Below, one piece after another: positions 3,324 to 19,007 of a stretch of 24,000 nt of DNA. The position numbers and the translations under genes were made by a program. The notes under the pieces were generated by a model. That model was not told where the DNA came from, ran no database searches, and was given only the letters and a program-made list of their open reading frames with translations. Numbering within the stretch: the first letter of the stretch is position 1; each line of letters opens with the position of its first letter. The stretch comes from an uncultured Alphaproteobacteria bacterium (GTDB lineage: Bacteria > Pseudomonadota > Alphaproteobacteria > Rhodospirillales > Casp-alpha2), in the NCBI GenBank assembly GCA_963976055.1, contig CAXBJB010000006.1, positions 1,784-25,783 on the forward strand, written 5' to 3'.

Positions 3324-3911
3324 TTAGCGCGGTGCGGTTCTGCGGGCCGCATGGGCCAGGCGGTCGACCGCTTCCGGATGGGGATCGTAAGCGCCGGTCC
3401 GGATGTAGTGCTCGATGGTCGGGCAGAGCCGCTTGACGAAGGCGTCCCGTGGCATGGCGTCATGGGCTTGGCGGGCGCTGTCCCGGCCGGGCGTCAGACG
3501 GTCGAGGATCCGTGCCGCGTCGGCGATGATGGCGGCATGGCGGGCCTGCCAACGCACGATGTCGCGACGCATGTCGGTGGCGCAATCGCGCTGGGCGCGG
3601 GTCAGCAGGCTGTCGTAGCTGTCGATCATCGCCGCATAGACGAAGGCCTTTTGCGTGTCGGTCAGGCGCATGGCGTCGGGCACGCGGCCGTCCGTCGTCA
3701 GGGTCAGCTTGGTCGGAATGCCGCGCCGGGTGAACGTGGCCGGGTTCCAGTCGTAGGCCCCGTCCAGGGCGGTATCCGGCTCACCCATGGCGGGCTCAAC
3801 CGCAACTTGGGGGCCGACGACGGCCGGATGGTCTGCGACGATGCCCAGGAGCACCCGCAGGACGCCGAGAAACAGGATGCCTAATATTAAAAATCGCTCA
3901 ATAGGTGTCAT
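3324..3911 (-). CDS. Hypothetical membrane-anchored protein (195 aa)
   Basis: It has an N-terminal hydrophobic helix (FLILGILFLGVLRVLLGIV), high GC3 in this frame, and an AT-rich initiation region. The + ORF 3351..3884 has typical G/V/A/R shadow composition. I recognise no family. Confidence 0.65.
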   Translation of the reverse strand: MTPIERFLILGILFLGVLRVLLGIVADHPAVVGPQVAVEPAMGEPDTALDGAYDWNPATFTRRGIPTKLTLTTDGRVPDAMRLTDTQKAFVYAAMIDSYDSLLTRAQRDCATDMRRDIVRWQARHAAIIADAARILDRLTPGRDSARQAHDAMPRDAFVKRLCPTIEHYIRTGAYDPHPEAVDRLAHAARRTAPR

Positions 3912-3971
3912 TGAACGACTTTAGGGAACTCGGTCGGAAATGGCGATGGTAGGGGGACGCGAAATTGCAGA

Positions 3972-5276
3972 TCATCGACGTATAGACCGGACGAGCATCA
4001 TGCCGATGCTGATGAGCGCGGCCAGGATGGTTGCCAGGCGCAGCCAATGGAATGTGTAGCCGCGTTGTAGCCCGATATACAGCGTCGGTTCAAACAGATA
4101 GCGCCGTAGGCGATACGTCAGTTTTGTCGCAAACGGCGGGTTTATTTGATGAGCGAACCGATCATGCGCACCCCAATATTGCAGGATTGCATTGCGTGTG
4201 AATACACCCGCCAAGCTATGGCGTATGTCGGCGGAAAGGGGGGCGCGGGGTTCTCCGGATGCGGCGAGACGGGTCGACCATTTCGCCGCCGTATCGGATA
4301 GGGCGCCGCTGGAAATCAGGAACAGCATGTCGGCGGCGTTCAGCACGCGGTCGTTAGGACCGGTCAGATAGTCGATATTATGGCTTAGATCCGAATAGGC
4401 CCAACGGCCTTGTTCGGCCACGAAGCTTTCCGTGAATGCATGACTGCTCATAAGGACACCGTCGATGGTTCGTCCGGACCAAACCAATCGTGTCGGCACC
4501 CCGGCAACGTTCAACAGAAAGGCTTTCATCAAGGCGCGTTGGCGGCAGAACAGGGGAACCCCTTTTTCCTTGGCCACGTTCAGAACCTGCATCGGCGACA
4601 TGGTGTCCAGATCGGCGGGAGGTTGACCTGATTTTATGCGCGCAATGAGGCCGACCGAGACGGCGGTGATTTTCTCGCGCGACGTCATGTCTGGCGTGAC
4701 ACCAATGCGGTTGAGAAACTGCCGAGCCTGTGCCGTATCGGCGGCGGGATAATCCTCAAGCGGCGGTATCCAGCGTGTGAAATCGGGGCCGGCCTGCGGA
4801 GCGACCTCCAAGGGCGCGCGATACAGATTGATCAAATCCGGGTGCGGCGCGTCTGTTGGTGCATCGGCCTGCGGTGTAAAGGCGATATCGAATTCCAGGG
4901 GGCGCGGAATGATCAAATCGCGGCAATCCAGGGGATCGACCTGATATATGTGACGGCCCGGCGCGAGGGTGATGATAGGGGTCGGGCTGTCGATGGTTTG
5001 CGTTGCGCCGTCGTCGCGGGCAACCCGCCAGCGCTCGCACGCGCCGACGTTGGTCAGGCGTACGGTCAGGCGGTTGCCGTTTTTGTCGAAACCGGAAATG
5101 CGGGCCCCTGCAGAGGGGGGCGGGGCGTAAATATCGCCGAGGGTCGCAGGTTGATATTCAAGCCATAAGAGGTCGCTGCGAAAGACGAAGACGGCAATTG
5201 CGGCGGCACCGCTTAGGCATGCGGCAAGAAACCAGAACGGTGCGGCGGCGTAGGCCATTTTAAGTGGCGTTGGCAA
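3972..5276 (-). CDS. Transglutaminase-like (Cys-His-Asp papain-fold) membrane protein
   Basis: PLFCRQRALMKAFLLNVAGVPTRLVWSG (Cys plus the G-x-P-x-R-x-V motif) is followed by SSHAFTESFVAEQGRWAYSDLSHN (His, then Asp). This matches the transglutaminase-core pattern. Hydrophobic helices sit at the N-terminus (FWFLAACLSGAAAIAVFVF) and the C-terminus (LATILAALISIGMMLV). The TTG at 5276 has a GGAG about 9 nt upstream; an alternative ATG is at 5258. Confidence 0.7.
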   Translation of the reverse strand: MPTPLKMAYAAAPFWFLAACLSGAAAIAVFVFRSDLLWLEYQPATLGDIYAPPPSAGARISGFDKNGNRLTVRLTNVGACERWRVARDDGATQTIDSPTPIITLAPGRHIYQVDPLDCRDLIIPRPLEFDIAFTPQADAPTDAPHPDLINLYRAPLEVAPQAGPDFTRWIPPLEDYPAADTAQARQFLNRIGVTPDMTSREKITAVSVGLIARIKSGQPPADLDTMSPMQVLNVAKEKGVPLFCRQRALMKAFLLNVAGVPTRLVWSGRTIDGVLMSSHAFTESFVAEQGRWAYSDLSHNIDYLTGPNDRVLNAADMLFLISSGALSDTAAKWSTRLAASGEPRAPLSADIRHSLAGVFTRNAILQYWGAHDRFAHQINPPFATKLTYRLRRYLFEPTLYIGLQRGYTFHWLRLATILAALISIGMMLVRSIRR

Positions 5277-5313
5277 GGCTGTTCGCTCCGGTTGGATGGC
5301 CGGCTGCGCTCGG

Positions 5314-6906
5314 TTATTCCCACTCGATGGTGCCGGGCGGCTTGGACGTCACGTCGTAGACGACGCGGTTGATGCCTTTGACCTCGTTGATGATGCGGTT
5401 GGCCGTGCGGCCGAGGAATTCGTGGTCGAAGGGGTAGTAGTCCGCGGTCATGCCGTCGGTCGAGGTCACGGCGCGCAGCGCGCAGACGAAATCGTAGGTC
5501 CGGGCGTCGCCCATCACGCCCACGGTCTGCACCGGCAGCAGCACGGCGAAGGCCTGCCAGATGGTATCGTACAGCCCGGCATTGCGGATTTCTTCCAGGT
5601 AGATCACGTCGGCCTTGCGCAGGATGTCGAGCTTGTCGCGCGAGATCGCACCCGGAATGCGGATCGCCAGGCCGGGGCCCGGGAAGGGGTGGCGGCCGAC
5701 GAAGGTTTCGGGCAGGCCGAGTTCGCGGCCGAGTGCGCGGACTTCGTCCTTGAACAGTTCGCGCAAGGGTTCGACCAAGGCCATGTCCATGCGTTCGGGC
5801 AGGCCGCCCACGTTGTGGTGCGACTTGATGGTGACCGAGGGTCCGCCGGTGAACGACACGCTTTCGATGACGTCCGGGTACAGTGTGCCCTGGGCCAGGA
5901 ACTTGGCACCGCCGACGTTTTTGGCCTCTTCCTCGAACACGTCGATGAACAGCTTGCCGATGGTTTTGCGCTTGACCTCGGGGTCGGTCACGCCGTCCAG
6001 TTCGCCCAGGAACAGGTCCGAGGCGTCGCGGTGGACGAGGGGGATGTTGTAGGTATCGCGGAATAGGGAGACGACCTGATCGGCCTCGCCTTCCCGCATC
6101 AGGCCGTGATCGACGAACACGCAGGTCAGCTGGTCGCCGATCGCCTCGTGCAGCAGCACGGCGACGACCGATGAATCGACGCCGCCGGACAGGCCGCAGA
6201 TCACCCGGCCCGTGCCGACCTGGTCGCGCACCTTCTGGATCGCTTCGTCCTTGAACGCAGCCATGGTCCAGTCGCCGGCGCAGCCCGCGATCTTATGCAC
6301 GAAGTTGGCCAGCAATTTGGCCCCGTCGGGGGTGTGCACGACCTCGGGGTGGAACTGCACGCCGAACATGCGCCCGCTTTCGTGGGCGATGGCGGCGAAG
6401 GGCGAACCGTCGGACACGGCCACGGGGCGGAAGCCCGCGGGCACGCGGATGATCTTGTCGCCGTGGCTCATCCACACCTGGTGCTTTTCGCCCTTGGCCC
6501 ACACACCCGCGAACAGGGGGCAGTCCTCGGTCACCTGGATGAAGGCGCGGCCGAATTCCCGGTGGTTGGAGGGCTCGACCTCGCCGCCGGTCTGGGCGAC
6601 CATGGTCTGCTCGCCGTAACAGATGCCGAGCACGGGCAGGTCGCCCACGGCCGAGGCCGCGTCGAACAGGGCCTGAGGGGCGCGGGGGGTCGTCTGTTCA
6701 TGGACGGAAGCCGGGCCGCCCGACAGAATCACGCCCTTGGGGCCGAAGGCCCGGATGAAGGCTTCGTCGACGGCATTGAAGGGGTGGATTTCGCAGTAAA
6801 CGCCCGATTCCCGGACCCGGCGCGCGATCAATTGCGTCACCTGAGAGCCGAAATCGACGATCAGGATTTTTTCCGCGTGAAGATCGGGGTGCGACGCCTG
6901 AGACAT
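5314..6906 (-). CDS. guaA: GMP synthase (glutamine-hydrolysing)
   Basis: This is a full-length 530-aa match to the GuaA architecture. It has the GATase domain ([27 protein letters not shown]), the ATP-PPase motif [10 protein letters not shown], and the canonical C-terminus KPPGTIEWE. Confidence 0.98.
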
Positions 6907-7005
6907 GGGGTGCTTCTATCGCGAACCACCCCCCGAGTCACGCTCCGAGATGTCCCGACACAAAGGAAAAATCCGTTGGGGAACCGGGGGCGGGCGGCGC
7001 CCCGC

Positions 7006-7482
7006 CTACATGCGCGCCAGGCGGGCGCAAGTGGTTGGCCGTTCGCCCACGCCCTGATCCCCGGCGGCCATGAACACGCGGTCGACCACATGGCGGCCGA
7101 GGGCGCTGTTGACGCGGTCGGCCAGTTGCTTGTCCAGGCCCGAGGCGGCGATGTTCGGCCAGGAGAACGGCCCCCGCACATTGGCCCGCATGAAGGATTT
7201 CACTTCCATCTGGACGCGCGCGAGGTCGCGGCAGAATTCCGCGCCCGCCTGCTTGTCGGTTACCCGGAAGGCGATGGAAATGGGCACCAGGGCCGACGAT
7301 CCGCCCTGGTAATCGACCCGCGCCAAATAGGGCGAAACCTGCATGTCATAGATCTGATCGACGCGCGCCGCGGATTGCGATCCCACGCCGTCGATCGAGC
7401 CGCCTGGACCGAGAATCCACACGGCGGCGACGGCCGCCGACACCGTGGTGCCAAGAGCGGCCCCTGCAACATAGAGGTTCAC
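7006..7482 (-). CDS. Hypothetical membrane-anchored protein, possibly FliL-like
   Basis: The GTG start is preceded by AAGGGGAG. An N-terminal TM helix (GTTVSAAVAAVWIL) is followed by the pattern YDMQVSPYLARVDYQGGSSALVPISIAFRV...LDKQLADRVNSALGRHVVDRVFM, which resembles the FliL layout. The functional call is weak. Confidence 0.5.
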   Translation of the reverse strand: MNLYVAGAALGTTVSAAVAAVWILGPGGSIDGVGSQSAARVDQIYDMQVSPYLARVDYQGGSSALVPISIAFRVTDKQAGAEFCRDLARVQMEVKSFMRANVRGPFSWPNIAASGLDKQLADRVNSALGRHVVDRVFMAAGDQGVGERPTTCARLARM

Positions 7483-7719
7483 CGTTGCTCCCCTTTATCT
7501 AACACCCTCCCCAGGCATCCAACGGAAGGGCATGGTTAATATTATCACTCAATGATGAACGTTGCCGCCCCTTTTTCAGAGACGCGCCGCTCAATAATGT
7601 AATTTGTTGAATTCACACCCATATATCTTGTGCCGGGCGGCGCGACAGGAGTGTCCGCCGTTAACGGAATCGACACGGGATCCGGGGAAAATGACTGCAA
7701 TCGGGTCAGGGACGGGCAT

Positions 7720-8673
7720 ATGGCCATCACGACATTGAGATTCGCATCCTGTTCGCCGACGGTCGCCGTGCTGGCCGCCGTCCTGTTGGCCGGTCCCGCC
7801 GCCGCGCAAACGCCGCAGACGACTGTTCCCGATGTCGCCCCGGCAGCCGAAGCGAAGACGACCGACGCCAAGGCGCGGATCACGAAACGGGACTGCCGCC
7901 GGCTGCTTCGCCATCAGCCCAGCGGCGACGTCGCCTACAAACCCGGCGTCGACGTGCGCGGCAAGGCCGTGGCCCCGGCGGACCTGTCGGGCGGGTTCAA
8001 GATGGTTCTGTCGGACGTCTTCGAATTCAACGTGACCAAGAACCTGTCGGCCTATCTGGGCGGGGCCGAGGAACAGCTGGCCGCCGACAAGGCCGCCGCC
8101 CTGGCCGCCGAGAAATCCGCCGCCGCGACCGACGCCGCCGTGTCCTCCGCCGCCCTGTCCGTGGCCGGGGCCCAGGATGCCCACGACACCGCCGCCGCCA
8201 ATGCCACGGCGGCCCAGGCCGCCGCCGATGCCGCCCCGAACGATGCCGCCCTGGCCGCCGCCGCCGCCACGGCGACCGCCGCCGCCACATCGGCGCAGAC
8301 AAATCTTGCGGCGACCCAGACCTATTACACCGCGACCCAGAACGCCGCCGCCGCCAATGACGTTTCCGCGGCGCTTTCCGGCGCCAACGCGGCGCAATCG
8401 GCGGCCGAGGCCGCAGGCTATACCCCCGACGCCACGGCCCAGTCGGCCCGCACGAAGGCCGCGACGGCGGCCTCGGCCGCTGCCGCCGCAGACACGGCGG
8501 CGCTCGCGGCGCGCGAGACCGTGGCGAAAAGCGAAGGCATGGAATTGAACGTCGGCACCGTGCGCTTCAACATCAACACCGGCGCCATGACTTTCAACGG
8601 CCAGCCGTTGAACGACGCCGCCATGGGCGAGATGGCGGTCATTTGTAAGGAAATCCTCGCGGGCGGGAAGTAG
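7720..8673 (+). CDS. Secreted alanine-rich low-complexity protein
   Basis: The ATG at 7720 gives a signal peptide, MAITTLRFASCSPTVAVLAAVLLAGPAAA/QTP. Non-repetitive N- and C-terminal segments flank an A/T/Q/N-rich core of about 200 aa encoded mostly by GCC codons. The upstream part of the track ORF (7630-7719) has no support. The Gly-rich antisense ORF 7591..8397 is rejected. Confidence 0.65.
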   Translation: MAITTLRFASCSPTVAVLAAVLLAGPAAAQTPQTTVPDVAPAAEAKTTDAKARITKRDCRRLLRHQPSGDVAYKPGVDVRGKAVAPADLSGGFKMVLSDVFEFNVTKNLSAYLGGAEEQLAADKAAALAAEKSAAATDAAVSSAALSVAGAQDAHDTAAANATAAQAAADAAPNDAALAAAAATATAAATSAQTNLAATQTYYTATQNAAAANDVSAALSGANAAQSAAEAAGYTPDATAQSARTKAATAASAAAAADTAALAARETVAKSEGMELNVGTVRFNINTGAMTFNGQPLNDAAMGEMAVICKEILAGGK

Positions 8674-9854: not shown

Positions 9855-10436
9855 ATGACCAAGATTACCCTCGACCGCCGCGACCTTCTGGCTCCCCTGT
9901 TCCCGGACCAGGATAACTGGCTGTTCGTCTCGGGCCTCGCCGGCTCATCCAAGGATGCCGCCGGGCTGACCAACGACGGCCCCAACCTGTTCACCATGGC
10001 GGGCTGCATGGGCTCCGCCGTCGCCACCGGCCTGGGCATGGCGCTCTCGGCCCCGGAAAAACAGGTCGCCGTCATCACCGGCGACGGCGAATTGCAGATG
10101 GGCCTGGGCTCACTCAACACGGTCGCGACGCAGGGCCCGGCCAACCTCACCATCGTCTGCATCGACAACGGCACCCATGGCGAGACGGGCGGCCAGGAAG
10201 GCCACACGGCGCAGCGCACCAACCTCGCGATGATCGCCCAGGGCTCGGGCATCGCAAGCGTCAAGGAAATCACCTCGGCCGATCAGATCGCCGACGCCCA
10301 CGACTTCATCCGCACGGCCCCCGGCCCGCGCTTCCTGTGGTGCCGCGTGCTGCCCGGCGACCCCACGGCGTTCAAGCGCAACTTCAACCCGGCGGAATGC
10401 CGGATTGCGTTTCGGAACGCGTATCTGTCGGCCTGA
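9855..10436 (+). CDS. comE: TPP-dependent decarboxylase, beta subunit (sulfopyruvate decarboxylase ComE-like)
   Basis: The TPP-binding motif GDGELQMGLGSLNTVATQGPANLTIVCIDNG (GDG...N) is present, and GGAGG lies upstream of the ATG at 9855. The upstream part of the track ORF (9759-9854) overlaps the palindromic spacer and is not supported. Confidence 0.8.
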   Translation: MTKITLDRRDLLAPLFPDQDNWLFVSGLAGSSKDAAGLTNDGPNLFTMAGCMGSAVATGLGMALSAPEKQVAVITGDGELQMGLGSLNTVATQGPANLTIVCIDNGTHGETGGQEGHTAQRTNLAMIAQGSGIASVKEITSADQIADAHDFIRTAPGPRFLWCRVLPGDPTAFKRNFNPAECRIAFRNAYLSA

Positions 10437-10479
10437 ACCTTGGGCGCCGGATCAGGGCGGCGGAAACGGACCGGACAGG

Positions 10480-11364
10480 ATGATGTTCGAAAATTTCAAA
10501 AGCAGGCGCATCGCCGCCAACGGCACGGAAATCAACTTGAGATGGGCCGGTGACGGCCCGCCGCTTTTATTGATCCACGGGTATCCGCAGAGCCATGTCA
10601 TGTGGCACAAGGTCGCCCCCGCCCTGGCCGAGACGTTCACGGTCGTCTGTCCGGATGTGCGCGGCTACGGCGACAGCGGCAAACCGCCATCGGACGACGA
10701 CCACCGCCCCTATTGCAAAAGCGAGCAGGCGCGGGATCTGGTCGAGGTCATGGCGGCGCTGGGCCATGAGACATTCCATGTCGCCGGCCACGACCGCGGC
10801 GGGCGGGTGGCCTATCGGCTGACCCTGGATCATCCCGACCGTGTGACAAGGCTGGCGGTGTTGGACATCGTGCCGACGGTGGAACAGTACGAACGCATGA
10901 AGGTCGGCGGCGCCCAGGCGTCCTTCCACTGGTATTTCCTGGCTCAGCCCGCCCCCTTGCCGGAACGGCTCATCGGCAACGATCCCGAATTCTTCCTGCG
11001 CCATGTCGCCGATAGCTGGACCAAGATCGACGGCTGTTTCGACGATGCCGCCATGGCGGAATATATCCGCTGTTTCGATCCGGCGATGATTCACGCAACC
11101 TGCGAAGACTACCGGGCCGGTTATGCCATCGACCGCAAGCTGGACGCCGCAGACCGGGCGGCGGGGCGTAAGATCACCTGCCCCGTCCTGGTGCTATGGG
11201 GCGACCGGGGCCGGCCCGATAAGCCCGTCTCGGTGCTGGATATCTGGAAAACCTGGGCTGATGACGTAACGGGCCACGGCGTCCCCGGCGGGCATTTCCT
11301 GCCCGAGGAATCGCCGGGCGAGACCCTGACGGCGTTGCGGGCATTTTTTGCCGGCGGCGCCTAG
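10480..11364 (+). CDS. Alpha/beta hydrolase, haloacetate (fluoroacetate) dehalogenase / epoxide-hydrolase-like subfamily
   Basis: It has LLLIHGYPQSHVMWHKV, the nucleophile-elbow motif VAGHDRGGRVAYR (Asp nucleophile with Arg at +1 and +4), FHWYFLAQP, and C-terminal GGHFLPEE. Substrate is not determinable from sequence. Confidence 0.85.
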   Translation: MMFENFKSRRIAANGTEINLRWAGDGPPLLLIHGYPQSHVMWHKVAPALAETFTVVCPDVRGYGDSGKPPSDDDHRPYCKSEQARDLVEVMAALGHETFHVAGHDRGGRVAYRLTLDHPDRVTRLAVLDIVPTVEQYERMKVGGAQASFHWYFLAQPAPLPERLIGNDPEFFLRHVADSWTKIDGCFDDAAMAEYIRCFDPAMIHATCEDYRAGYAIDRKLDAADRAAGRKITCPVLVLWGDRGRPDKPVSVLDIWKTWADDVTGHGVPGGHFLPEESPGETLTALRAFFAGGA

Positions 11365-11393
11365 GGCGGCCACGGACAAGGGGGCCAACCGCC

Positions 11394-11978
11394 TCAGCCC
11401 CGCCCCAGGGTATAAAATTCGTCGTTGGGCCGCATGGCGGTGAAGTTGGCCATGCGGTTCGACAGCGCGAAGAACGCCGCGATGGCGGCGATGTCCCAGA
11501 CGTCCTCGGCGTCGAAGCCGTGGGCCTTCAGGGCCTCCAGGTCCGCGTCCTCGACGGCGCCGGCGTCGCGCGACACCTTCATGGCGAAGTCCAGCATGGC
11601 GCGCTGGCGGGGCGATATGTTGGCTTTGCGGTAGTTCACGGCGACCTGATCGGCGATCAAGGGATTCTTCGCCCGGATGCGCAGGATCGCACCATGCGCG
11701 ACCACGCAGTACAGGCAATCGTTCCTGGCCGAGGTCGCGACCACGATCATCTCGCGCTCGGCCTTGGAAAGGCCCCCGTCCTTTTCCATCAGCGCGTCGT
11801 GATAGGCCATGAAGGCGCGCAGCTCCTCCGGCCGATGGGCCAACACCAAAAACACGTTGGGCACGAAGCCGGCCTTTTCCTGCACGGCCAAGATCATGTC
11901 GCGCAGGTCGTCGGGCAGGTCCATGACGTCCGGGACGGGGTAGCGGCTGATTCTCTTCGTTTCCTGGGAGGCGGTCAT
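11394..11978 (-). CDS. Peroxidase-related enzyme, carboxymuconolactone decarboxylase (AhpD-like) family
   Basis: It has LSKAEREMIVVATSARNDCLYCVVAHG (CxxC-containing AhpD core motif) and a C-terminal ALSNRMAN. Confidence 0.85.
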   Translation of the reverse strand: MTASQETKRISRYPVPDVMDLPDDLRDMILAVQEKAGFVPNVFLVLAHRPEELRAFMAYHDALMEKDGGLSKAEREMIVVATSARNDCLYCVVAHGAILRIRAKNPLIADQVAVNYRKANISPRQRAMLDFAMKVSRDAGAVEDADLEALKAHGFDAEDVWDIAAIAAFFALSNRMANFTAMRPNDEFYTLGRG

Positions 11979-12075
11979 GAGGCTGGCCTTTCGCTTGGAT
12001 ACTTCATTACGGGCTTACTAAGCTTCCGAGGCGCGGCCGGCATTGATGAATGTCATGCCACCACGGGACGGGCGG

Positions 12076-12104
12076 AAAATAAAAAGGCCGGGCATTGCCC
12101 GGCC
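12076..12104 (-). terminator. Intrinsic-terminator-like hairpin oriented on the minus strand, with no minus-strand gene upstream of it
   Basis: A perfect 8-bp GC stem, ggccgggc (12086-12093) / gcccggcc (12097-12104), has a 3-nt loop. On the minus strand it is followed by TTTTTATTTTCC. Confidence 0.55.
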
Positions 12105-13714
12105 TGTCCGCATTTCGAGGAGGCAATATGAGCTCAGTTACTCGTAAAAGACAAATGGGGCGAGTATATTGAGATTTGCTAAAATTCAGGCGTTTGAGGG
12201 GGGCCATGTTTCTTAAAAAGCATGATGTATCCGAAATTGATCCCGCTAACGTTTGGCAGGGAGATAAATTAAAACGAAAGCAAATCGCTGACTATTTGAC
12301 CCCCATTATCGCCAGCATCGATCAACCATTCGTTATTAGCTTGAACGCTGAGTACGGCATGGGGAAGACGGATTTCGTTAAACGATGGCAGTGCGATCTA
12401 AACAATCACGGCTTTAAGACTGCATATTTTAATGCTTGGGAAACTGATTTTTCCGAAAACGCTCTCGCCGCATTTATGTCTTCGCTGAAGTCACAATTGG
12501 TCGAGCAAGCCAAGGGAGTATCAAAAACAAAAATCAAAAACAGAATCAGCGAATTGGTTTCAAAATCTGGAGGGTTCATTCGTCATAAAGCTGGTCCGAT
12601 GCTTGCTCGTGTGATTGCTAGAAAATTAATTGGAGACGAGGAAATCAAGGCGCTCAAAGAATTTGAACTAAATGAAGAAGATATCGAAAATTTAACCTCG
12701 GCGATGGCCGAAGAGGCACTTGCAGCTCAAGAGGCTGCGGAAGTCTCAATGTCAGCATTTAGGAACGAAGTTGAGAAGCTTGTCGAGGAATTGACTAAGA
12801 ATGAGAACGACAAACAAAAGCGCAAATTGATTATCTTTGTCGACGAACTTGATCGTTGTAGGCCGAATTACGCCTTGGAGGTCCTGGAATCGATAAAACA
12901 TTTGTTTTCAGTTCCTGGTGTAATTTTTATTTTGGCTGTCGATGAAACCCAACTTAGAGAAACTGTGAAGACAATATACGGGTCTGACATGAACGGACCT
13001 GGTTATTTTTCAAGGTTTTTCGACTGGCGTTTCCAATTGCCCTTGCCGGACTACTATGCATTCGCAACCTACCTACTGTCTCTATACGGCCTTGAAGGGT
13101 CTGCCGGTTTTGAAAAGCCAGCGGAAGAAAACGACTTCTCTAATCCCCTCCAACTTACGGCTTGGTTCGCTGAAGCAGCGGAGTTTTTTATGCTTTCGCC
13201 GCGACAACAAATCAGGTGCTTTACCGAGATAAATTTGGTCATTCGTTCCGCGCCCACGGGGCAGATCCCACATTGTCCCGTATTGGGGTTACTTGTTGTT
13301 TTGAAGGCGGTTTACCCGAAGCAATGTCAGGATTTTTGCCTGGGCACAGGTAATGTTGCGGAGTCACGAGAATTAATTATGAGTAAAATATCGCAAATGA
13401 GAACTCCGAGTATTTTCAATTCGTCATTAGAATATAAATATATTGTTGGTGTATGGGAAATAGGGCGTAATCGTCTCAATAGTGTAGAAGAAGAAATTGA
13501 TAATTTGGAGACACAAGCTGGACTCAAGATTCAGCAATTGCGCTCAAAGGAACGAGCAAGGATATTAAATCTCGTTCATGTAAGAGACCATCTGAGAACG
13601 TCGTTCAGCACCCCAGGCTCAGGCAGTTTGCTTGCGGAAGTATATTCCCGACTCGAACGAGCGTCCGTGATTCTGAGACAATGACAGGCGCTTATTTTAT
13701 CGCCCATGCCCACC
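12105..13714. other. Low-GC insert (genomic islet) carrying the KAP NTPase
   Basis: Composition drops abruptly: 39 G+C in the first 100 nt of the KAP ORF by direct count, against clearly >60% in flanking genes. A-, T- and K/N/I-rich codon usage is seen nowhere else in the window. Confidence 0.7.
12206..13684 (+). CDS. KAP-family P-loop NTPase (492 aa)
   Basis: It has Walker A (LNAEYGMGKTDF), YFNAWETDF, Walker B (KLIIFVDELDRCRPNYALEVLESIKHLF), IFILAVDETQL, FFDWRFQLPLP and LSPRQQIRCFTEINL, which are the hallmark KAP motifs. The ATG at 12206 is preceded by GAGGGGGG. The TTG at 12176 is less likely. Confidence 0.9.
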   Translation: MFLKKHDVSEIDPANVWQGDKLKRKQIADYLTPIIASIDQPFVISLNAEYGMGKTDFVKRWQCDLNNHGFKTAYFNAWETDFSENALAAFMSSLKSQLVEQAKGVSKTKIKNRISELVSKSGGFIRHKAGPMLARVIARKLIGDEEIKALKEFELNEEDIENLTSAMAEEALAAQEAAEVSMSAFRNEVEKLVEELTKNENDKQKRKLIIFVDELDRCRPNYALEVLESIKHLFSVPGVIFILAVDETQLRETVKTIYGSDMNGPGYFSRFFDWRFQLPLPDYYAFATYLLSLYGLEGSAGFEKPAEENDFSNPLQLTAWFAEAAEFFMLSPRQQIRCFTEINLVIRSAPTGQIPHCPVLGLLVVLKAVYPKQCQDFCLGTGNVAESRELIMSKISQMRTPSIFNSSLEYKYIVGVWEIGRNRLNSVEEEIDNLETQAGLKIQQLRSKERARILNLVHVRDHLRTSFSTPGSGSLLAEVYSRLERASVILRQ

Positions 13715-13744
13715 AAAAAGGCCGCGCATCGAAGATACGCGGCC
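13715..13744. terminator. Shared (bidirectional) intrinsic terminator between the KAP NTPase and thiC; stronger on the minus strand
   Basis: The stem is ggccgcg (13720-13726) / cgcggcc (13738-13744), with an inner atc/gat helix. The minus strand reads the hairpin followed by TTTTTGG; the plus strand reads it followed by TTTCG. A second small hairpin, cccggg-ctat-cccggg, is at 13751-13766. Confidence 0.65.
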
Positions 13745-13805
13745 TTTCGTCCCGGGCTATCCCGGGTGCTAACTTGATGGTGGACGCCAAGGCGTCGCGG
13801 GTGAC

Positions 13806-15877
<2,072 letters not shown>

Positions 15878-15978
15878 AAGGGGAATCTGGGGGTTAACGC
15901 GGACGAGGTCAAGGGATTCCAGACCGCGGACGGGGATGACCTTCGTCCATATCGCCGATTATTTCGGATTCTGGTAAT

Positions 15979-17122: not shown

Positions 17123-17928
17123 CCAGCCAGGCCATTCCCCTGACCGCGTTCGACCTGGCCCTGGCGGCCCTGCTGCTGGTCGTCAACGGCGGGATTTCCC
17201 TGTGGCTCGGCCTCGGCATTACCCGCTCGCTGGCCATCGCAGCACTCCGCATGACGGTGCAGCTGCTGCTGGTCGGCCTGGTGCTGAAGGCCCTGTTCGC
17301 GCAGCAGTCGCCCTGGCTGACGCTCGGCGTGGTGGCGATCATGGTCGGCTTCGCCGGCTACGAGATCATGAACCGCCAGGACCGCAAGCTGACCGGATGG
17401 TGGTCCTACGGGATCGGCGTCTCGACCATGACCTTCGCCGCCGTTTCCGTGACCTGCCTGGCCCTGACGACGCAGTTGAAGCCCGACCCGTGGTGGGACG
17501 CGCGCTATGCGGTGCCGATCTTGGGCATGATCCTGGGCAATGCGATGACCGGGATCAGCCTGGGCCTCAACACCTTGTTCAACACGGTCGTCCGCGAACG
17601 CTGGGCCGTCGAGGCGCAGATCGCCCTGGGATATCCGCGCGAGGTGGCGCTCCGGCCCTTCGTCCGCCGCGCCCTCAAAACCGCCCTGATGCCGACCATC
17701 AATTCCATGGCGGCGACCGGGGTGGTCGCCTTGCCGGGCATGATGACGGGCCAGATTTTGGCCGGCGCCGACCCGGTGGAGGCCGTGAAGTACCAACTGC
17801 TGGTCATGTTCCTGATCGGCGGGGCCACCGGGATCGGCGCCGTCCTGGCGATCTATGCCGCCGTCTGGCGCATCACCGATCCACGCCACCGCCTGCGCCT
17901 GGACAGAATTCAAGGGACCGACCAATGA
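17119..17928 (+). CDS. fetB: UPF0014-family ABC permease, YbbM/FetB-like
   Basis: It is a polytopic membrane protein with ILGMILGNAMTGISLGL and MPTINSMAATGVVALPGMMTGQILAG. Its ATG overlaps the fetA stop (ATGA at 17119-17122). Confidence 0.8.
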   Translation: MTSQAIPLTAFDLALAALLLVVNGGISLWLGLGITRSLAIAALRMTVQLLLVGLVLKALFAQQSPWLTLGVVAIMVGFAGYEIMNRQDRKLTGWWSYGIGVSTMTFAAVSVTCLALTTQLKPDPWWDARYAVPILGMILGNAMTGISLGLNTLFNTVVRERWAVEAQIALGYPREVALRPFVRRALKTALMPTINSMAATGVVALPGMMTGQILAGADPVEAVKYQLLVMFLIGGATGIGAVLAIYAAVWRITDPRHRLRLDRIQGTDQ

Positions 17929-19007
17929 CGGAAACCATCACCGCCCTCCGCGCCCGGCCCGTGGTCGTGCCCATGCGCCGGCCGTTGGCGACGGCCGGCG
18001 GCGCGGTATCCGAAGCCCCCCTGGTGCTGGTCGATGTGGAAACGGCATCGGGCATCTTCGGCCGGGCCTATTCCTTCGCCTATCACGCCTGGGCCTTGAA
18101 GCCGATCATGGCGATGTACGACGTGCTGGCGGATAAGGTGACGGGTAAGGCGCTCGACCCCCAGGCGGTTCAGGCGGAACTCTGGGCCGCCTTTCGCTTG
18201 CTGGGCGCCAAGGGCGTGGCGGGGCAGGCGATCTCCGGCCTTGACATGGCGCTGTGGGATGCGGCGGCCAAGGCTAAAGGGCAACCGCTCTACAAGGCCT
18301 TGGGGGCCGATGCAGCGGCCACGCCCGCCTACAACTCCAAGGGCCTCGGCATGATCGGCGCCGAGGCGGCGGGCAAGGAAGCCCGTGACCTGCTGGACGA
18401 AGGCTTCGGCGCCGTGAAGGTCCGCCTGGGTTATCCGACCCTGGAAGAGGACGTCGCGGTTGTTCACGCGGTCAAGGCGGCGATTGGCCCCGACGCCCGC
18501 CTGATGAGCGACTACAACTAAAGCCAGGAGGTCGAGGAGGTCATCCGCCGGGTCAAGGCGCTGGACGGCGAGGGGCTCTATTGGGTCGAGGAGCCGGTGC
18601 ATTACGACGACTTCTACGGCCATGCGGCGCTGCGCGCGGTGGTGAAGACTCCGGTGCAGACGGGCGAGAACTGCTGGTTCCCCGGCGAAATGGCGAAATG
18701 CATGGCGGCGGGCGCCTGCGATTATTTCATGCCCGACGCGGGCAAGATCGGCGGCGTCACCGGCTGGATGGGCGCGGCCAAGCTGGCGGCGGCGGCCAAC
18801 CTGCCGCTGTCGAGCCATCTCTATCCCGAGGTCAGCGTCCACCTTTTGGCCGCGACGCCGACCCGCCACTGGCTGGAATACGTGGACTGGGCCGAACCTG
18901 TCCTGGCCGAAGCGCTTCCCGTGATCGACGGCCATTGCCGTCCTGCGGAAAAACCCGGCATCGGCATTGAATGGAACGACCGGGCCGTCGATAAGTATGG
19001 GGTCTGA
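17925..19007 (+). pseudogene. Enolase-superfamily enzyme of the mandelate racemase subgroup, interrupted by one in-frame TAA (18519-18521)
   Basis: The two track ORFs (ending at 18521 and at 19007) are in the same frame. Reading through gives ...GFGAVKVRLGYPTLEEDVAVVHAVKAAIGPDARLMSDYN*SQEVEEVIRRVKALDGEGLYWVEEP...VQTGENCW...FMPDAGKIGGVTGW...LSSHLYPEVSVHLLAATPTRHWLEY, colinear with mandelate racemase as I recall it. The ATG at 17925 overlaps the fetB stop. Confidence 0.8.

Follow-up and report, generated by a model that had tools for sequence, protein, structure and literature searches.

A low-GC KAP NTPase gene as candidate anti-phage cargo of a small integrase-free hotspot beside thiC in a marine Rhodospirillales clade

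Background

KAP NTPases typically, though not universally, have 2 or 4 transmembrane (TM) helices in or beside the P-loop domain. In a stretch of 24,000 nt from an uncultured marine member of the Rhodospirillales (the whole of which is called the window below), a first-pass annotation had pointed to a low-GC islet of 1.6 kb with a single gene for an apparently soluble protein of this family, and had proposed that it was a recently acquired module of an undescribed system, possibly a defence-type sensor. The question raised by this locus is how such a gene came to lie between core genes and what its product does there.

Results and discussion

Low-GC islet and its single gene

At positions 12106-13714 the GC content was 43.9%, compared with 64.7% in the remaining window. 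This islet was the lowest in GC of the entire window (z = -8.3 relative to 94 other 1.6-kb stretches, with 59.3% for the runner-up), and its borders were marked by GC steps at approximately 12106 and 13710. The windowed GC profile agreed with the annotated islet and the fall in GC at its borders, and so did the single ORF of 492 aa and the exact count of 39 G or C among the first 100 nt of that ORF. The gene had 43.4% GC and a GC3 of 0.43, compared with GC3 values of 0.80-0.90 in the neighbouring genes. An alternative TTG start 30 nt upstream would extend the product to 502 aa. The islet and its borders comprised the following elements.

12085-12105, minus strand: hairpin A, terminator-like, the TPP_C/thiC terminator and left border of the KAP sub-slot
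12106-12205, plus strand: KAP gene leader; its GAGG ribosome-binding site is conserved, and mean column identity across three alleles is 73%
12206-13684, plus strand: gene for a KAP-family P-loop NTPase of the PADLOC PDC-S20 type, 492 aa with an ATG start, cargo of the right sub-slot
13709-13800, minus strand: hairpin B module of approximately 100 nt with three hairpins, right border of the sub-slot (dG -57 kcal/mol, z = -4.9)

In the leader, RNA structure was not unusual (z = 0.12) and no sigma-70-like site was found on the plus strand. A micro-ORF of 14 codons (12128-12172) was rejected as a functional element, given the ordinary RNA structure and the absence of its ATG in both syntenic alleles, which belong to sister genomes (loci L011 and L014, see below). 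No Rfam family was matched in the islet, the sole match in the window being the TPP riboswitch of thiC. Integrase or transposase genes were not called anywhere in the 24,000 nt, and other mobile-element genes were found neither in the window nor in L011 and L014. Integration of the islet at a tRNA or att site was rejected, the window having no tRNA genes. Identical copies of the KAP protein were present on at least 22 contigs, mainly from TARA Oceans assemblies, and on each of the 22 contigs compared the gene was accompanied by the CMD gene, also identical.

The protein matched Pfam KAP_NTPase (PF07693) over residues 24-293 with 135.4 bits (cut-off 20) and E = 3e-39. Every KAP landmark named in the first-pass annotation was located, and this score above the curated threshold, together with Walker A, the NAW..D signature and a Walker B block of the hhhhDELDR form, places the protein in the KAP family. 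Its motifs and domains are given below, with residues invariant among 60 homologues.

12356-12370, plus strand: Walker A motif GMGKT, residues 51-55; G51, G53 and K54 invariant
12431-12451, plus strand: KAP signature NAWETDF, residues 76-82; F75, W78 and D81 invariant
12518-12793, plus strand: antiparallel helical hairpin forming a coiled-coil arm that separates Walker A from Walker B, residues 105-196; AlphaFold helices 105-152 and 157-196
12830-12865, plus strand: Walker B block IIFVDELDRCRP, residues 209-220; D213, D216, R217, C218 and P220 invariant
13196-13222, plus strand: SPRQQIRCF helix in the helical lid, residues 331-339, bearing the invariant R333
13256-13681, plus strand: fast-diverging all-helical C-terminal domain, residues 351-492, with low identity among alleles and a confident model

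In the C-terminal half, R333 was the sole invariant residue of the 60 homologues; it is a putative sensor or arginine-finger residue.

A defence hotspot between two core genes

Two converging core genes, adjacent in at least 25 loci of Rhodospirillales MAGs, enclose the islet in their terminator region. These flanks, and the other genes found between them in the window, were as follows.

9855-10436, plus strand: TPP_enzyme_C gene (TPP_C), conserved left flank, Pfam PF02775
10480-11364, plus strand: alpha/beta hydrolase gene, cargo of the left sub-slot, Pfam Abhydrolase_1
11394-11978, minus strand: CMD/AhpD-like gene, cargo of the left sub-slot, Pfam CMD
13806-15650, minus strand: thiC, conserved right flank, Pfam ThiC_Rad_SAM

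KAP alleles, also low in GC, were found in the same TPP_C/thiC slot of sister genomes L011 and L014, whose flanking proteins were 94-99% identical to those of the window (98.5-98.9% for thiC). The GMP synthase of L011 showed 96% identity in tblastn. The segment by which the window differed from these genomes was the hydrolase and CMD pair (approximately 10427-12081) and not the KAP gene; the pair had native GC (64-65%), both of its genes were missing in L011 and L014, and homology between the window and L011 restarted at 12082. The hydrolase and CMD genes occurred singly in L019, L020, L023, L054 and L057.

Comparison of the junction in other relatives, as proposed with the first-pass annotation, revealed empty sites in L021, L037 and L044 (gaps of 77-95 bp), and a retron, restriction-modification (RM) systems or other single genes elsewhere. 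In L016 the slot was occupied by retron I-C (E = 3e-225), in L018 by Vsr, Dcm and Eco29kI, in L038 by an MTase with NsnA/GmrSD and HEPN, and in L049 by an N6/N4 MTase and its partner; L057 and L054 had DUF2971 and HNH-like genes there. The cargo included two type II RM systems. Cargo not resembling defence genes was also found, namely lipoprotein-like ORFs, the hydrolase and the CMD gene. Genomes bearing the retron or an RM system had flanking proteins 93-98% identical, yet were without the KAP gene. Conservation of the low-GC gene throughout the genus, which had been named beforehand as an argument against insertion, extended to the two sister genomes carrying an allele, whereas the majority of the clade was without it. 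Given the empty sites of three relatives, the different cargo of close relatives and the foreign composition, the data support the KAP gene as a horizontally acquired single-gene cargo.

Each genome had one cassette of 0.7-3.8 kb, and the slot consisted of two sub-slots with a terminator hairpin between them. This hairpin A, with a 9-bp stem including 8 GC pairs and a T-run (dG -24.6 kcal/mol, z = -3.9), was all that the empty site of L021 contained and was kept on the left of KAP, the retron and other cargo; it is the ancestral terminator of the TPP_C/thiC junction. The hairpin B module, the present terminator of thiC, was kept beside thiC with KAP, retron, lipoprotein-like, DUF2971 and HNH-like cargo and was missing from the empty sites. 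With one copy per locus, it was rejected as a dispersed repeat. A 15-nt repeat at 12081 and 13715 had been considered as a target-site duplication; each copy forms the 5' arm of a separate terminator hairpin, and one of these, hairpin B, also flanks cargo unrelated to KAP.

No integrase or transposase was found in the slots of the window, L011, L014, L016 and L018. With its fixed position between core genes, variable cargo including known defence systems, empty sites and lack of an integrase, the TPP_C/thiC slot is a small integrase-free defence hotspot of a marine Rhodospirillales clade. The cDHS of Pseudomonas aeruginosa (PMC10250203) and the defence-island hotspots of E. coli (PMC10121019) are likewise flanked by core genes, with variable defence cargo and empty sites. 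This slot differs from them in being very small, in lying in a convergent terminator region, in having two sub-slots and a hairpin module of approximately 100 nt on the thiC side, and in its host, an uncultured marine Rhodospirillales clade.

Allele history and exchange

The L011 and L014 alleles showed 71% and 63% identity, and the presence of such divergent alleles in the same slot of two sister genomes contradicts the single recent acquisition assumed at first. The alleles of the window and the sister genomes had a GC3 of 0.36-0.45, compared with 0.88 in the host, and pS values of 0.63-0.83, compared with a dS of 0.2-0.4 in the flanks; synonymous sites between the alleles were saturated. 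By these distances, the alleles are older than their hosts. Purifying selection acts on the gene in three chromosomal lineages, with a pN of 0.04-0.09 in the ATPase core although pS is saturated, and a dN/dS of 0.17 between L011 and L014. A 40-codon sliding analysis was used in place of the whole-gene dN/dS value, which alone is misleading because the alleles are mosaic; between L011 and L014, the C-terminal half was swapped past approximately codon 280.

Another mosaic was observed in comparison with a co-occurring strain (L002).

10058-14167, no strand: 4.1-kb tract at 100% identity, common to diverged co-occurring strains, matched to L002

Identity of the window to L002 was 100% over approximately 10105-14104, 80-96% in the adjoining part of thiC and approximately 90% farther away. 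Independent assemblies broke at 10057/10058 and 14166/14167, the ends of the tract. A tract of 100% identity in a background of approximately 90%, with coincident assembly ends, suggests that homologous recombination took place in the core genes on either side, and the tract may represent the unit last exchanged in this manner. This mosaic was seen in assembled metagenomes, where a chimera is conceivable in principle; the contig ends coincide in several samples, which argues against one. The observation that no integrase or transposase accounts for the mobility of the gene was correct for the window, but the tract removes the puzzle that had been seen in it, as it indicates recombination in the flanks.

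Solubility, C-terminal domain and fold

The absence of TM helices was judged from Kyte-Doolittle values in 19-residue windows and from the AlphaFold model. The insert between the Walker motifs had 36% charged residues and a peak value of 0.47, compared with approximately 1.6 required for a TM helix. The peak of the whole protein, 1.62, was located in a core beta-strand. Across the family, the insert reached 1.49 at most, and none of the 60 homologues had a TM-grade segment within it. Both methods therefore agreed with the annotated charged, coiled-coil-like insert without hydrophobic helices, also family-wide. No amphipathic or hydrophobic segment hinting at membrane contact was found in the protein by Kyte-Doolittle analysis and the family-wide check of the insert. 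The absence of TM helices does not bar the protein from the KAP family, since PifA, a namesake of the family, is described in the literature as likewise without them; solubility is thus less odd for a KAP protein than had been thought.

No Pfam domain was found beyond residue 293, consistent with the earlier description of a C-terminal region without recognisable domain or fused effector. When modelled separately, the C-terminal 210 residues (283-492) were all-helical with a pLDDT of 91, and no fold match was found among PDB structures (best E = 0.83) in the search that had been suggested for this region. An effector in these residues is unsupported, the model being confident and without a PDB match. 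The C-terminal domain had 40-50% identity among the three syntenic alleles, compared with 82-97% in the ATPase core, and a family mean of 16%; by profile search of 1.84 billion proteins, it was restricted to the architecture of approximately 480 aa. It may serve as a specificity or output module.

For the KAP model, pLDDT was 87-91. Whole-chain Foldseek searches of the PDB placed RdrA rings first (8hr8, E = 1e-5; 8fnu, TMq 0.38), followed by ORC/Cdc6. The RdrA matches were weak (E = 1e-5 to 1e-4, TMq 0.30-0.38), and comparison of the family profile with PDB sequences gave noise only (E >= 0.013).

The PDC-S20 family

The PADLOC search proposed earlier identified the protein as a PDC-S20 candidate. 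Model PDLC04959 matched residues 5-435 to positions 4-415 of 464 (E = 1.2e-104, 349.5 bits), leaving the last 55 or so residues beyond the best match, and all 60 homologues matched PDC-S20, with a best E of 5e-153. The locus is therefore not an undescribed system, its family having already been catalogued as a candidate. PDC (phage defence candidate; Payne et al. 2024 preprint) families are predictions made from genes lying inside loci of known defence systems, namely BREX, DISARM or type I RM (10.1101/2024.01.29.577857). The window protein had the near-complete profile match and single-gene layout of PDC-S20, with no structural difference; PDC-S20 is a predicted candidate family, and membership alone establishes no function.

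In line with this origin of the family, homologue P0022 of Kordiimonas sediminis (L051) lay inside a type I RM operon, with hsdS and an unknown gene on one side and hsdR on the other. Another homologue (L050) adjoined a small serine recombinase, and others were solitary; one homologue was on an integrase-bearing element. A survey of homologue neighbourhoods, also proposed at the outset, thus gave no conserved partner or operon, the neighbours differing in every context examined. KAP relatives were common on viral contigs, with matches to PHROG 8614; on sequenced plasmids and phages, only partial matches of at most 37% identity were found in place of close homologues. PDC-S20 was not mentioned in any paper found by literature search. 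In Rousset et al. 2022, "KAP" matched the name of an author and not the protein, and a text search of Hochhauser et al. 2023 found nothing.

Comparison with known systems

Validated anti-phage defence was reported in 2026 for EF_KAP and three KAPs from gut metagenomes, each consisting of a KAP NTPase and a region of unknown function (PMC13552941). Such KAP NTPases protect E. faecalis; EF_KAP requires both Walker B and the C-terminal region, and was modelled with two TM helices (PMC13552941). Compared by description, EF_KAP resembles the window protein in being a single-gene KAP ATPase followed by a C-terminal region without known domain or structural match, and in the link of a homologue (L050) to small serine recombinases. 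In place of the two TM helices, the window protein has a coiled-coil hairpin, and the EF_KAP results may not transfer to it.

PifA, which excludes phage T7 on behalf of the F plasmid by abortive membrane leakage, is the founding prokaryotic KAP and has no TM helices (literature). It shares with the window protein the KAP ATPase core (PADLOC PifA, E = 8e-17, 59 bits), the lack of TM helices and single-gene phage exclusion, for the window protein a candidate function. The match was limited to residues 19-289 against positions 16-264 of 720, the C-terminal regions were unrelated, and the membrane-leakage mechanism of PifA found no support for the window protein.

RdrA, the top PDB structure match, is the ring-forming sensor ATPase of the RADAR defence system. 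It differs in its length (approximately 800-850 aa), in the lack of similarity at the sequence level, in the low TM-scores, and in working with the deaminase RdrB, which is missing beside the window KAP, a gene flanked by the CMD gene and thiC. QatA has a KAP-type ATPase core as well (NCBIfam QatA, E = 5e-19; PADLOC QatA, E = 1e-15), but the score was 68.3 bits against a cut-off of 600, and QatB, QatC and QatD were not nearby.

Possible function

On these data, the islet is probably one cassette of an integrase-free defence hotspot, and its product, a KAP NTPase of the PDC-S20 branch, a self-contained candidate for anti-phage defence. A defence role is the best reading of the gene, in agreement with the sensor proposed initially, because the same slot hosts retron I-C and RM systems, the protein matches PDC-S20 and a homologue lies in a type I RM operon. 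The argument from slot context is one of guilt by association. The protein would idle as a nucleotide-bound monomer until its C-terminal domain, perhaps with the coiled-coil arm, senses a phage protein or nucleic-acid structure. Sensing would license ATP binding or hydrolysis and ring assembly, as in STAND/AAA+ sensors such as RdrA; assembly into a ring is suggested by the weak whole-chain structure matches (TM 0.30-0.38). The assembled ATPase itself may then stop infection with no separate enzymatic effector domain, for instance if it remodels or sequesters the trigger or consumes ATP. As to spread, which the allele comparisons show in part, homologous recombination in the flanks would move whole alleles and intragenic recombination C-terminal halves, with no mobility genes of its own. 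A bolder version seems unlikely at present, namely that PDC-S20 proteins are soluble immune ATPases that lack an effector and represent a new mechanistic class, in which the arm and a private C-terminal fold sense a phage component, the ATPase ring is the weapon, C-terminal swaps re-tune specificity, and cassettes are shuffled through the three-hairpin landing pad at the 3' end of thiC without an element-encoded recombinase.

Several other explanations were considered. The example of PifA, the classical prokaryotic KAP, which has no TM helices and acts by abortive leakage (literature), and the PADLOC PifA match to the N-terminal ATPase region suggest that a sensed phage protein could bring the ATPase to the membrane, with depolarisation, nucleotide leakage and death of the infected cell. 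We regard this as improbable; the match is confined to the ATPase core, with unrelated C-terminal regions, no segment suited to membrane contact was found, and one recently tested KAP was reported as not acting by abortive infection (PMC13552941). It is equally improbable that the gene works for mobile elements rather than for the host, for instance as a remnant exclusion or addiction function of a phage or plasmid, the hotspot being a tolerated site for foreign DNA. The frequency of relatives on viral contigs and plasmids, the homologue on an integrase-bearing element and the non-defence cargo of the slot are consistent with this; against it stand the lack of further mobile-element genes in the window and the sister loci, and an intact gene under purifying selection in three chromosomal lineages. 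Phage-borne defence genes usually protect the host too, so that this explanation overlaps with the preferred one.

A lineage-specific housekeeping or regulatory ATPase, native to the locus and merely odd in composition, might be suspected from the presence of KAP in the same slot of three sister genomes and its fixation with the identical CMD gene. It is very improbable, being largely refuted by the empty and otherwise filled sites: the clade majority, including genomes with nearly identical flanking proteins, has a retron, an RM system or nothing in place of KAP. The low GC3 of the alleles, a divergence among alleles far above that of the hosts and the absence of a conserved partner or operon also argue against it. 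That the gene is a non-functional piece of foreign DNA in decay, as the foreign composition and the lack of a recognisable promoter or known effector domain could suggest, is extremely unlikely, since many samples carry the same intact ORF, the catalytic residues are all conserved, purifying selection is strong and the structure is confidently predicted.

Conclusions

An anti-phage candidate in a defence hotspot remains the preferred reading of the islet. For PDC-S20, the locus adds independent context evidence, as KAP alternates with a retron and RM systems at one slot in near-identical backgrounds, and such alternation is stronger guilt by association than mere co-localisation. The current picture of bacterial immunity is unchanged, and the locus fills a known category. 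The three natural alleles, with a near-equal ATPase core, C-termini of 40-50% identity and one natural swap, are suited to a test of phage specificity of the C-terminal region. The compact integrase-free hotspot in this abundant uncultured marine lineage, with evidence for transfer of a 4.1-kb tract between strains by homologous recombination, indicates how defence genes can move without mobile-element machinery.

Composition and limits of the islet

The 492-aa KAP-family NTPase gene lies between the core genes TPP_C (9855-10436, +) and thiC (13806-15650, -) and is bordered by two hairpins, at the following window coordinates.

12206-13684, +: KAP ORF, 492 aa (502 aa from an upstream TTG start)
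12085-12105: hairpin A, left border, stability far above that of shuffled sequence (z = -3.9)
~13709-13800, -: hairpin B, right border, three hairpins in ~100 nt, dG -57 kcal/mol, z = -4.9 against shuffled sequence

The first-pass annotation had placed a low-GC islet at 12105-13714, limits that are the inner edges of hairpins A and B, between flanks of >60% GC. Windowed analysis confirmed the drop: the GC content of 12106-13714 was 43.9% versus 64.7% in the remaining window, making the islet the GC minimum (z = -8.3 when compared with 94 other stretches of 1.6 kb, the second-lowest having 59.3%), and exactly 39 of the ORF's first 100 nt were G or C, as annotated. GC3 was 0.43 in the KAP ORF versus 0.80-0.90 in neighbouring genes. 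The three KAP alleles, from the window and the sister genomes L011 and L014, were all low in GC (41-46%).

Features of the KAP protein

All four KAP motifs quoted in the annotation were found in the ORF, namely GMGKT (Walker A, residues 51-55), NAWETDF (76-82), the Walker B block IIFVDELDRCRP (209-220) and SPRQQIRCF (331-339). Pfam KAP_NTPase matched residues 24-293 with 135 bits (cut-off 20), and a search of 5.8 billion proteins gave 895 relatives among the candidates scored. Invariant in an alignment of 60 homologues were G51, G53 and K54 of Walker A, F75, W78 and D81, D213, D216, R217, C218 and P220 of the Walker B block, and E228, K231 and R333. The protein is an intact P-loop ATPase evolving under selection.

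The insert between NAWETDF and Walker B was 36% charged, with a top 19-residue hydropathy of 0.47, far under TM-helix level. An AlphaFold2 model built on the 60-homologue alignment (mean pLDDT 86.9, pTM 0.83, confident) showed it as a long antiparallel helical hairpin (residues 105-152 and 157-196). Hydropathy and model, on which the TM-less assignment rests, bear out the claim that the insert has no hydrophobic helices, and no TM-grade segment was found in the insert of any family member examined. The top Foldseek match in the PDB was the heptameric RdrA ATPase of RADAR (8hr8, E = 1e-5; 8fnu, TMq 0.38), followed by ORC/Cdc6 and FtsH-type AAA+ modules; a PDB sequence search with the family profile found nothing. 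Because whole-chain TM-scores were low, the model supports only a ring-forming STAND/AAA+-like ATPase core.

Residues beyond 283 were all helical in this model, and residues 283-492 modelled alone gave a confident, all-helical structure (pLDDT 91.2) with no PDB match (Foldseek best E = 0.83), in agreement with the claim of a C-terminal region without a known domain. From 1.84 billion representatives its profile retrieved 978 proteins at E ≤ 0.001, of which 285 reached E ≤ 1e-10. Among the 150 hits listed, full-length proteins were ~455-520 aa long and matched at ~270-490, and shorter ones resembled fragments; since the full-length hits listed share one layout, the C-terminal domain appears to be private to the ~480-aa KAP architecture rather than a portable effector.

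Catalogued family and distant homologues

The gene had been taken for an undescribed system and is already catalogued: residues 5-435 matched PADLOC PDLC04959 (464 positions; E = 1.2e-104), the profile of the single-gene phage defence candidate PDC-S20, which all 60 aligned homologues also matched (best E = 5e-153). The PDC set comprises 145 candidate systems predicted from genes embedded within BREX, DISARM or type I RM loci (bioRxiv 10.1101/2024.01.29.577857); no mention of PDC-S20 was found in the literature searched. PHROG 8614 (function unassigned, 489 positions) matched with E = 9e-63. The match to QatA (E = 1e-15) covered the ATPase core only, with an NCBIfam QatA score of 68 bits versus a cut-off of 600. 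In Enterococcus faecalis, KAP NTPases fused to uncharacterised C-terminal regions were reported in 2026 to guard against phages, protection requiring Walker B and the C-terminal region (PMC13552941). EF_KAP has two TM helices (PMC13552941), whereas the window protein has none.

No conserved partner gene was found across the contexts of KAP homologues examined. The Kordiimonas sediminis homologue P0022 lies within a type I RM operon, in an element that also encodes a tyrosine integrase and a large serine recombinase; P0012 adjoins a small serine recombinase, and P0026 and P0029 are solitary, with housekeeping genes on either side. Relatives of 26-37% identity were common on IMG/VR viral contigs (311 confirmed stretches), and more distant ones occurred on plasmids and phages. 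Between hsdS and the KAP homologue in the K. sediminis operon (locus L051), 6732-7796 encodes a 354-aa protein without a Pfam hit, a second embedded, uncharacterised gene.

A hotspot between TPP_C and thiC

The identical KAP protein was found on at least 22 contigs, mostly TARA Oceans assemblies, always with the AhpD-like gene CMD (11394-11978, -) on one side and thiC on the other. The two closest homologues, P0002 (71% identity, Rhodospirillales MAG) and P0003 (63% identity, 4-Mb JGI contig), occupy the same slot by thiC, in genomes that lack CMD and the adjacent hydrolase gene (10480-11364, +) and whose flanking proteins are 94-99% identical to those of the window, the SNase-like protein only 84-91%. 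At the nucleotide level, the window regained homology to L011 at precisely 12082, where the left hairpin starts; therefore, the segment differing between the window and its sisters is 10427-12081 (hydrolase and CMD), not the KAP gene. A one-off recent insertion, as initially proposed, is contradicted by these alleles in the same slot of two sister genomes.

With TPP_C as anchor and one genome per GTDB species, 34 loci were obtained, and TPP_C adjoined thiC in at least 25 of them.

Cargo of the slot between TPP_C and thiC in other loci
L021, L037, L044: empty, 77-95 bp
L016: single-gene retron type I-C RT-Toprim, E = 3e-225
L018: Vsr, C5 methyltransferase and Eco29kI endonuclease
L038, 11196-14119: C5 methyltransferase, NsnA/GmrSD-like protein and HEPN protein
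L049: N6/N4 methyltransferase and uncharacterised 572-aa protein
L017, L019, L022, L026, L045: lipoprotein-like ORFs
L019, L020, L023: CMD or hydrolase (L019 also with a lipoprotein-like ORF)
L030, L033, L034, L036, L045: native-GC membrane protein

Three further kinds of cargo came from probing metagenomes with the right-hand hairpin sequence: a DUF2971 protein, a protein with weak HNH similarity, and a third, encoded at low GC, that has hydrophobic segments. Because flanking proteins of the retron- or RM-bearing genomes were 93-98% identical to the window's, the faster-evolving SNase-like protein excepted, the KAP gene alternates with recognised defence systems while the genomic background stays nearly the same. 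The locus is a hotspot rather than the site of a single insertion. The description of the gene as foreign, single-gene cargo holds, given its low GC, the lack of a conserved partner and a junction that is empty or differently filled in relatives.

In L038, a more distant relative, the NsnA/GmrSD_N-like protein is also PD-T4-2_A-like and the HEPN protein is HEPN_MAE_28990; this three-gene combination may merit separate attention. L049 is a 3.7-kb contig (NZ_JBDVDW010000054.1) binned in a Reichenbachiella (Bacteroidota) MAG; since the TPP_C and thiC encoded at its ends share 94% and 98% identity with those of the window, the contig almost certainly comes from Rhodospirillales and was mis-binned, probably because its low-GC RM cargo misled the binner.

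Anatomy of the slot

In the empty site, the TPP_C and thiC stop codons are separated by a single terminator, hairpin A (AAAAGGCCGGGCA...TGCCCGGCCTTTTT). RM cargo lies to its left. On its right are KAP, the retron and several further single-gene cargoes, with hairpin B after them, immediately adjoining the stop codon of thiC. Every filled right sub-slot has hairpin B at this position irrespective of its cargo, and empty sites lack it; it is conserved also in L014, L016, L017, L022, L026, L028 and L054-L057 and may be a terminator only or a landing pad. The first 15 nt of the two hairpins, AAAAAGGCCG[G/C]GCAT (12081-12095 and 13715-13729; 14/15 identical), reflect either duplication at insertion or convergence of terminator sequences. 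In L016, the retron I-C and hairpin B lie between direct repeats of 13 bp, AGTCGTCGTCGCC, that correspond to the 3' end of thiC (~10650-10670 and ~12930-12945), which hints at site-specific integration into the thiC end for at least one cassette; no such repeat was found around the KAP gene.

In the window both sub-slots are occupied: the left holds the native-GC hydrolase and CMD genes, the right the KAP gene. Hydrolase and CMD (10480-11978) are native in GC yet variable, both being absent from L011 and L014, with CMD lacking its hydrolase neighbour in L019, L020, L054 and L057 and hydrolase alone in L023; the left sub-slot of the window thus carries metabolic, not defence, cargo.

Elsewhere in the window, thiC is preceded, as expected for this gene, by a TPP riboswitch (15740-15880, -; Rfam RF00059, 55.4 bits, gathering score 54.3). 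L011 and L014 also lack a second segment, ~3759-5296 next to GMP synthase, which may be another variable islet; its ORF (3972-5276, -; GC slightly low at 59.6%, GC3 0.66) encodes a predicted membrane protein of 428-434 aa with no Pfam hit on record. An MR_MLE (enolase-superfamily) gene is annotated as two pieces of 198 and 136 aa (~17925-18521 and ~18597-19007, +) and is a single 360-aa gene in L011 and L014; the split could be a frameshift, pseudogene or assembly error.

Allele evolution and probable transfer

Whole-gene pS between KAP alleles was saturated (0.63-0.83), versus a flank dS of 0.22-0.43 (thiC, TPP_C and the SNase-like gene). In a 40-codon sliding analysis of pS/pN, the window allele was saturated in pS end to end against L011 and L014, even at pN of only 0.04-0.09; the allele represents an old lineage on which purifying selection has been strong. 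Between L011 and L014, pS was flank-like (0.15-0.42) at codons 1-120 and climbed to saturation past ~codon 280, marking a recombination breakpoint with exchange of the C-terminal half. Identities among the three alleles agree with this analysis, being highest in the ATPase core (82-97%), lower in the coiled coil (63-83%) and lowest in residues 351-492 (40-50%).

Strain L002 was 100% identical to the window over ~10105-14104 and ~90% identical elsewhere. We infer that a ~4.1-kb unit (TPP_C 3' end, hydrolase, CMD, KAP, hairpin B and thiC 3' end) was exchanged between strains through homologous recombination within the core genes on either side, which would explain the lack of an integrase. The remaining alternative, a shared tract produced by chimeric assembly, retains a small probability. 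Independent assemblies of other samples stop at 10057/10058 and 14166/14167, as expected where co-occurring strains diverge, and the 492-aa KAP is present on every contig with the identical CMD protein.

Possible function

The earlier interpretation was half right: the foreign, single-gene and very probably defensive character stands, and the undescribed status, exceptional solubility and unique recent insertion do not. On balance we favour a role for the KAP gene, as a candidate, in defence against phages or other MGEs. The fast-diverging C-terminal domain, possibly with the helical arm, would bind a phage-derived trigger, and binding would govern ATP-dependent ring assembly as in STAND/RdrA-like sensors. 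The assembled ATPase would itself be the output, since no nuclease, protease, pore or nucleotide-modifying fold was detectable in the protein. As a whole, this mechanism is tentative and rather doubtful. Its main rival is a PifA-like abortive mechanism through membrane leakage. PifA matched the ATPase core only (E = 8e-17), and the action of EF_KAP is not abortive infection (PMC13552941). According to a 2026 preprint, PifA has a KAP fold without TM helices (PMC13001434), so a soluble KAP protein is not new. What this locus adds to the family is the hotspot context, the natural C-terminal swap and the putative recombination tract.
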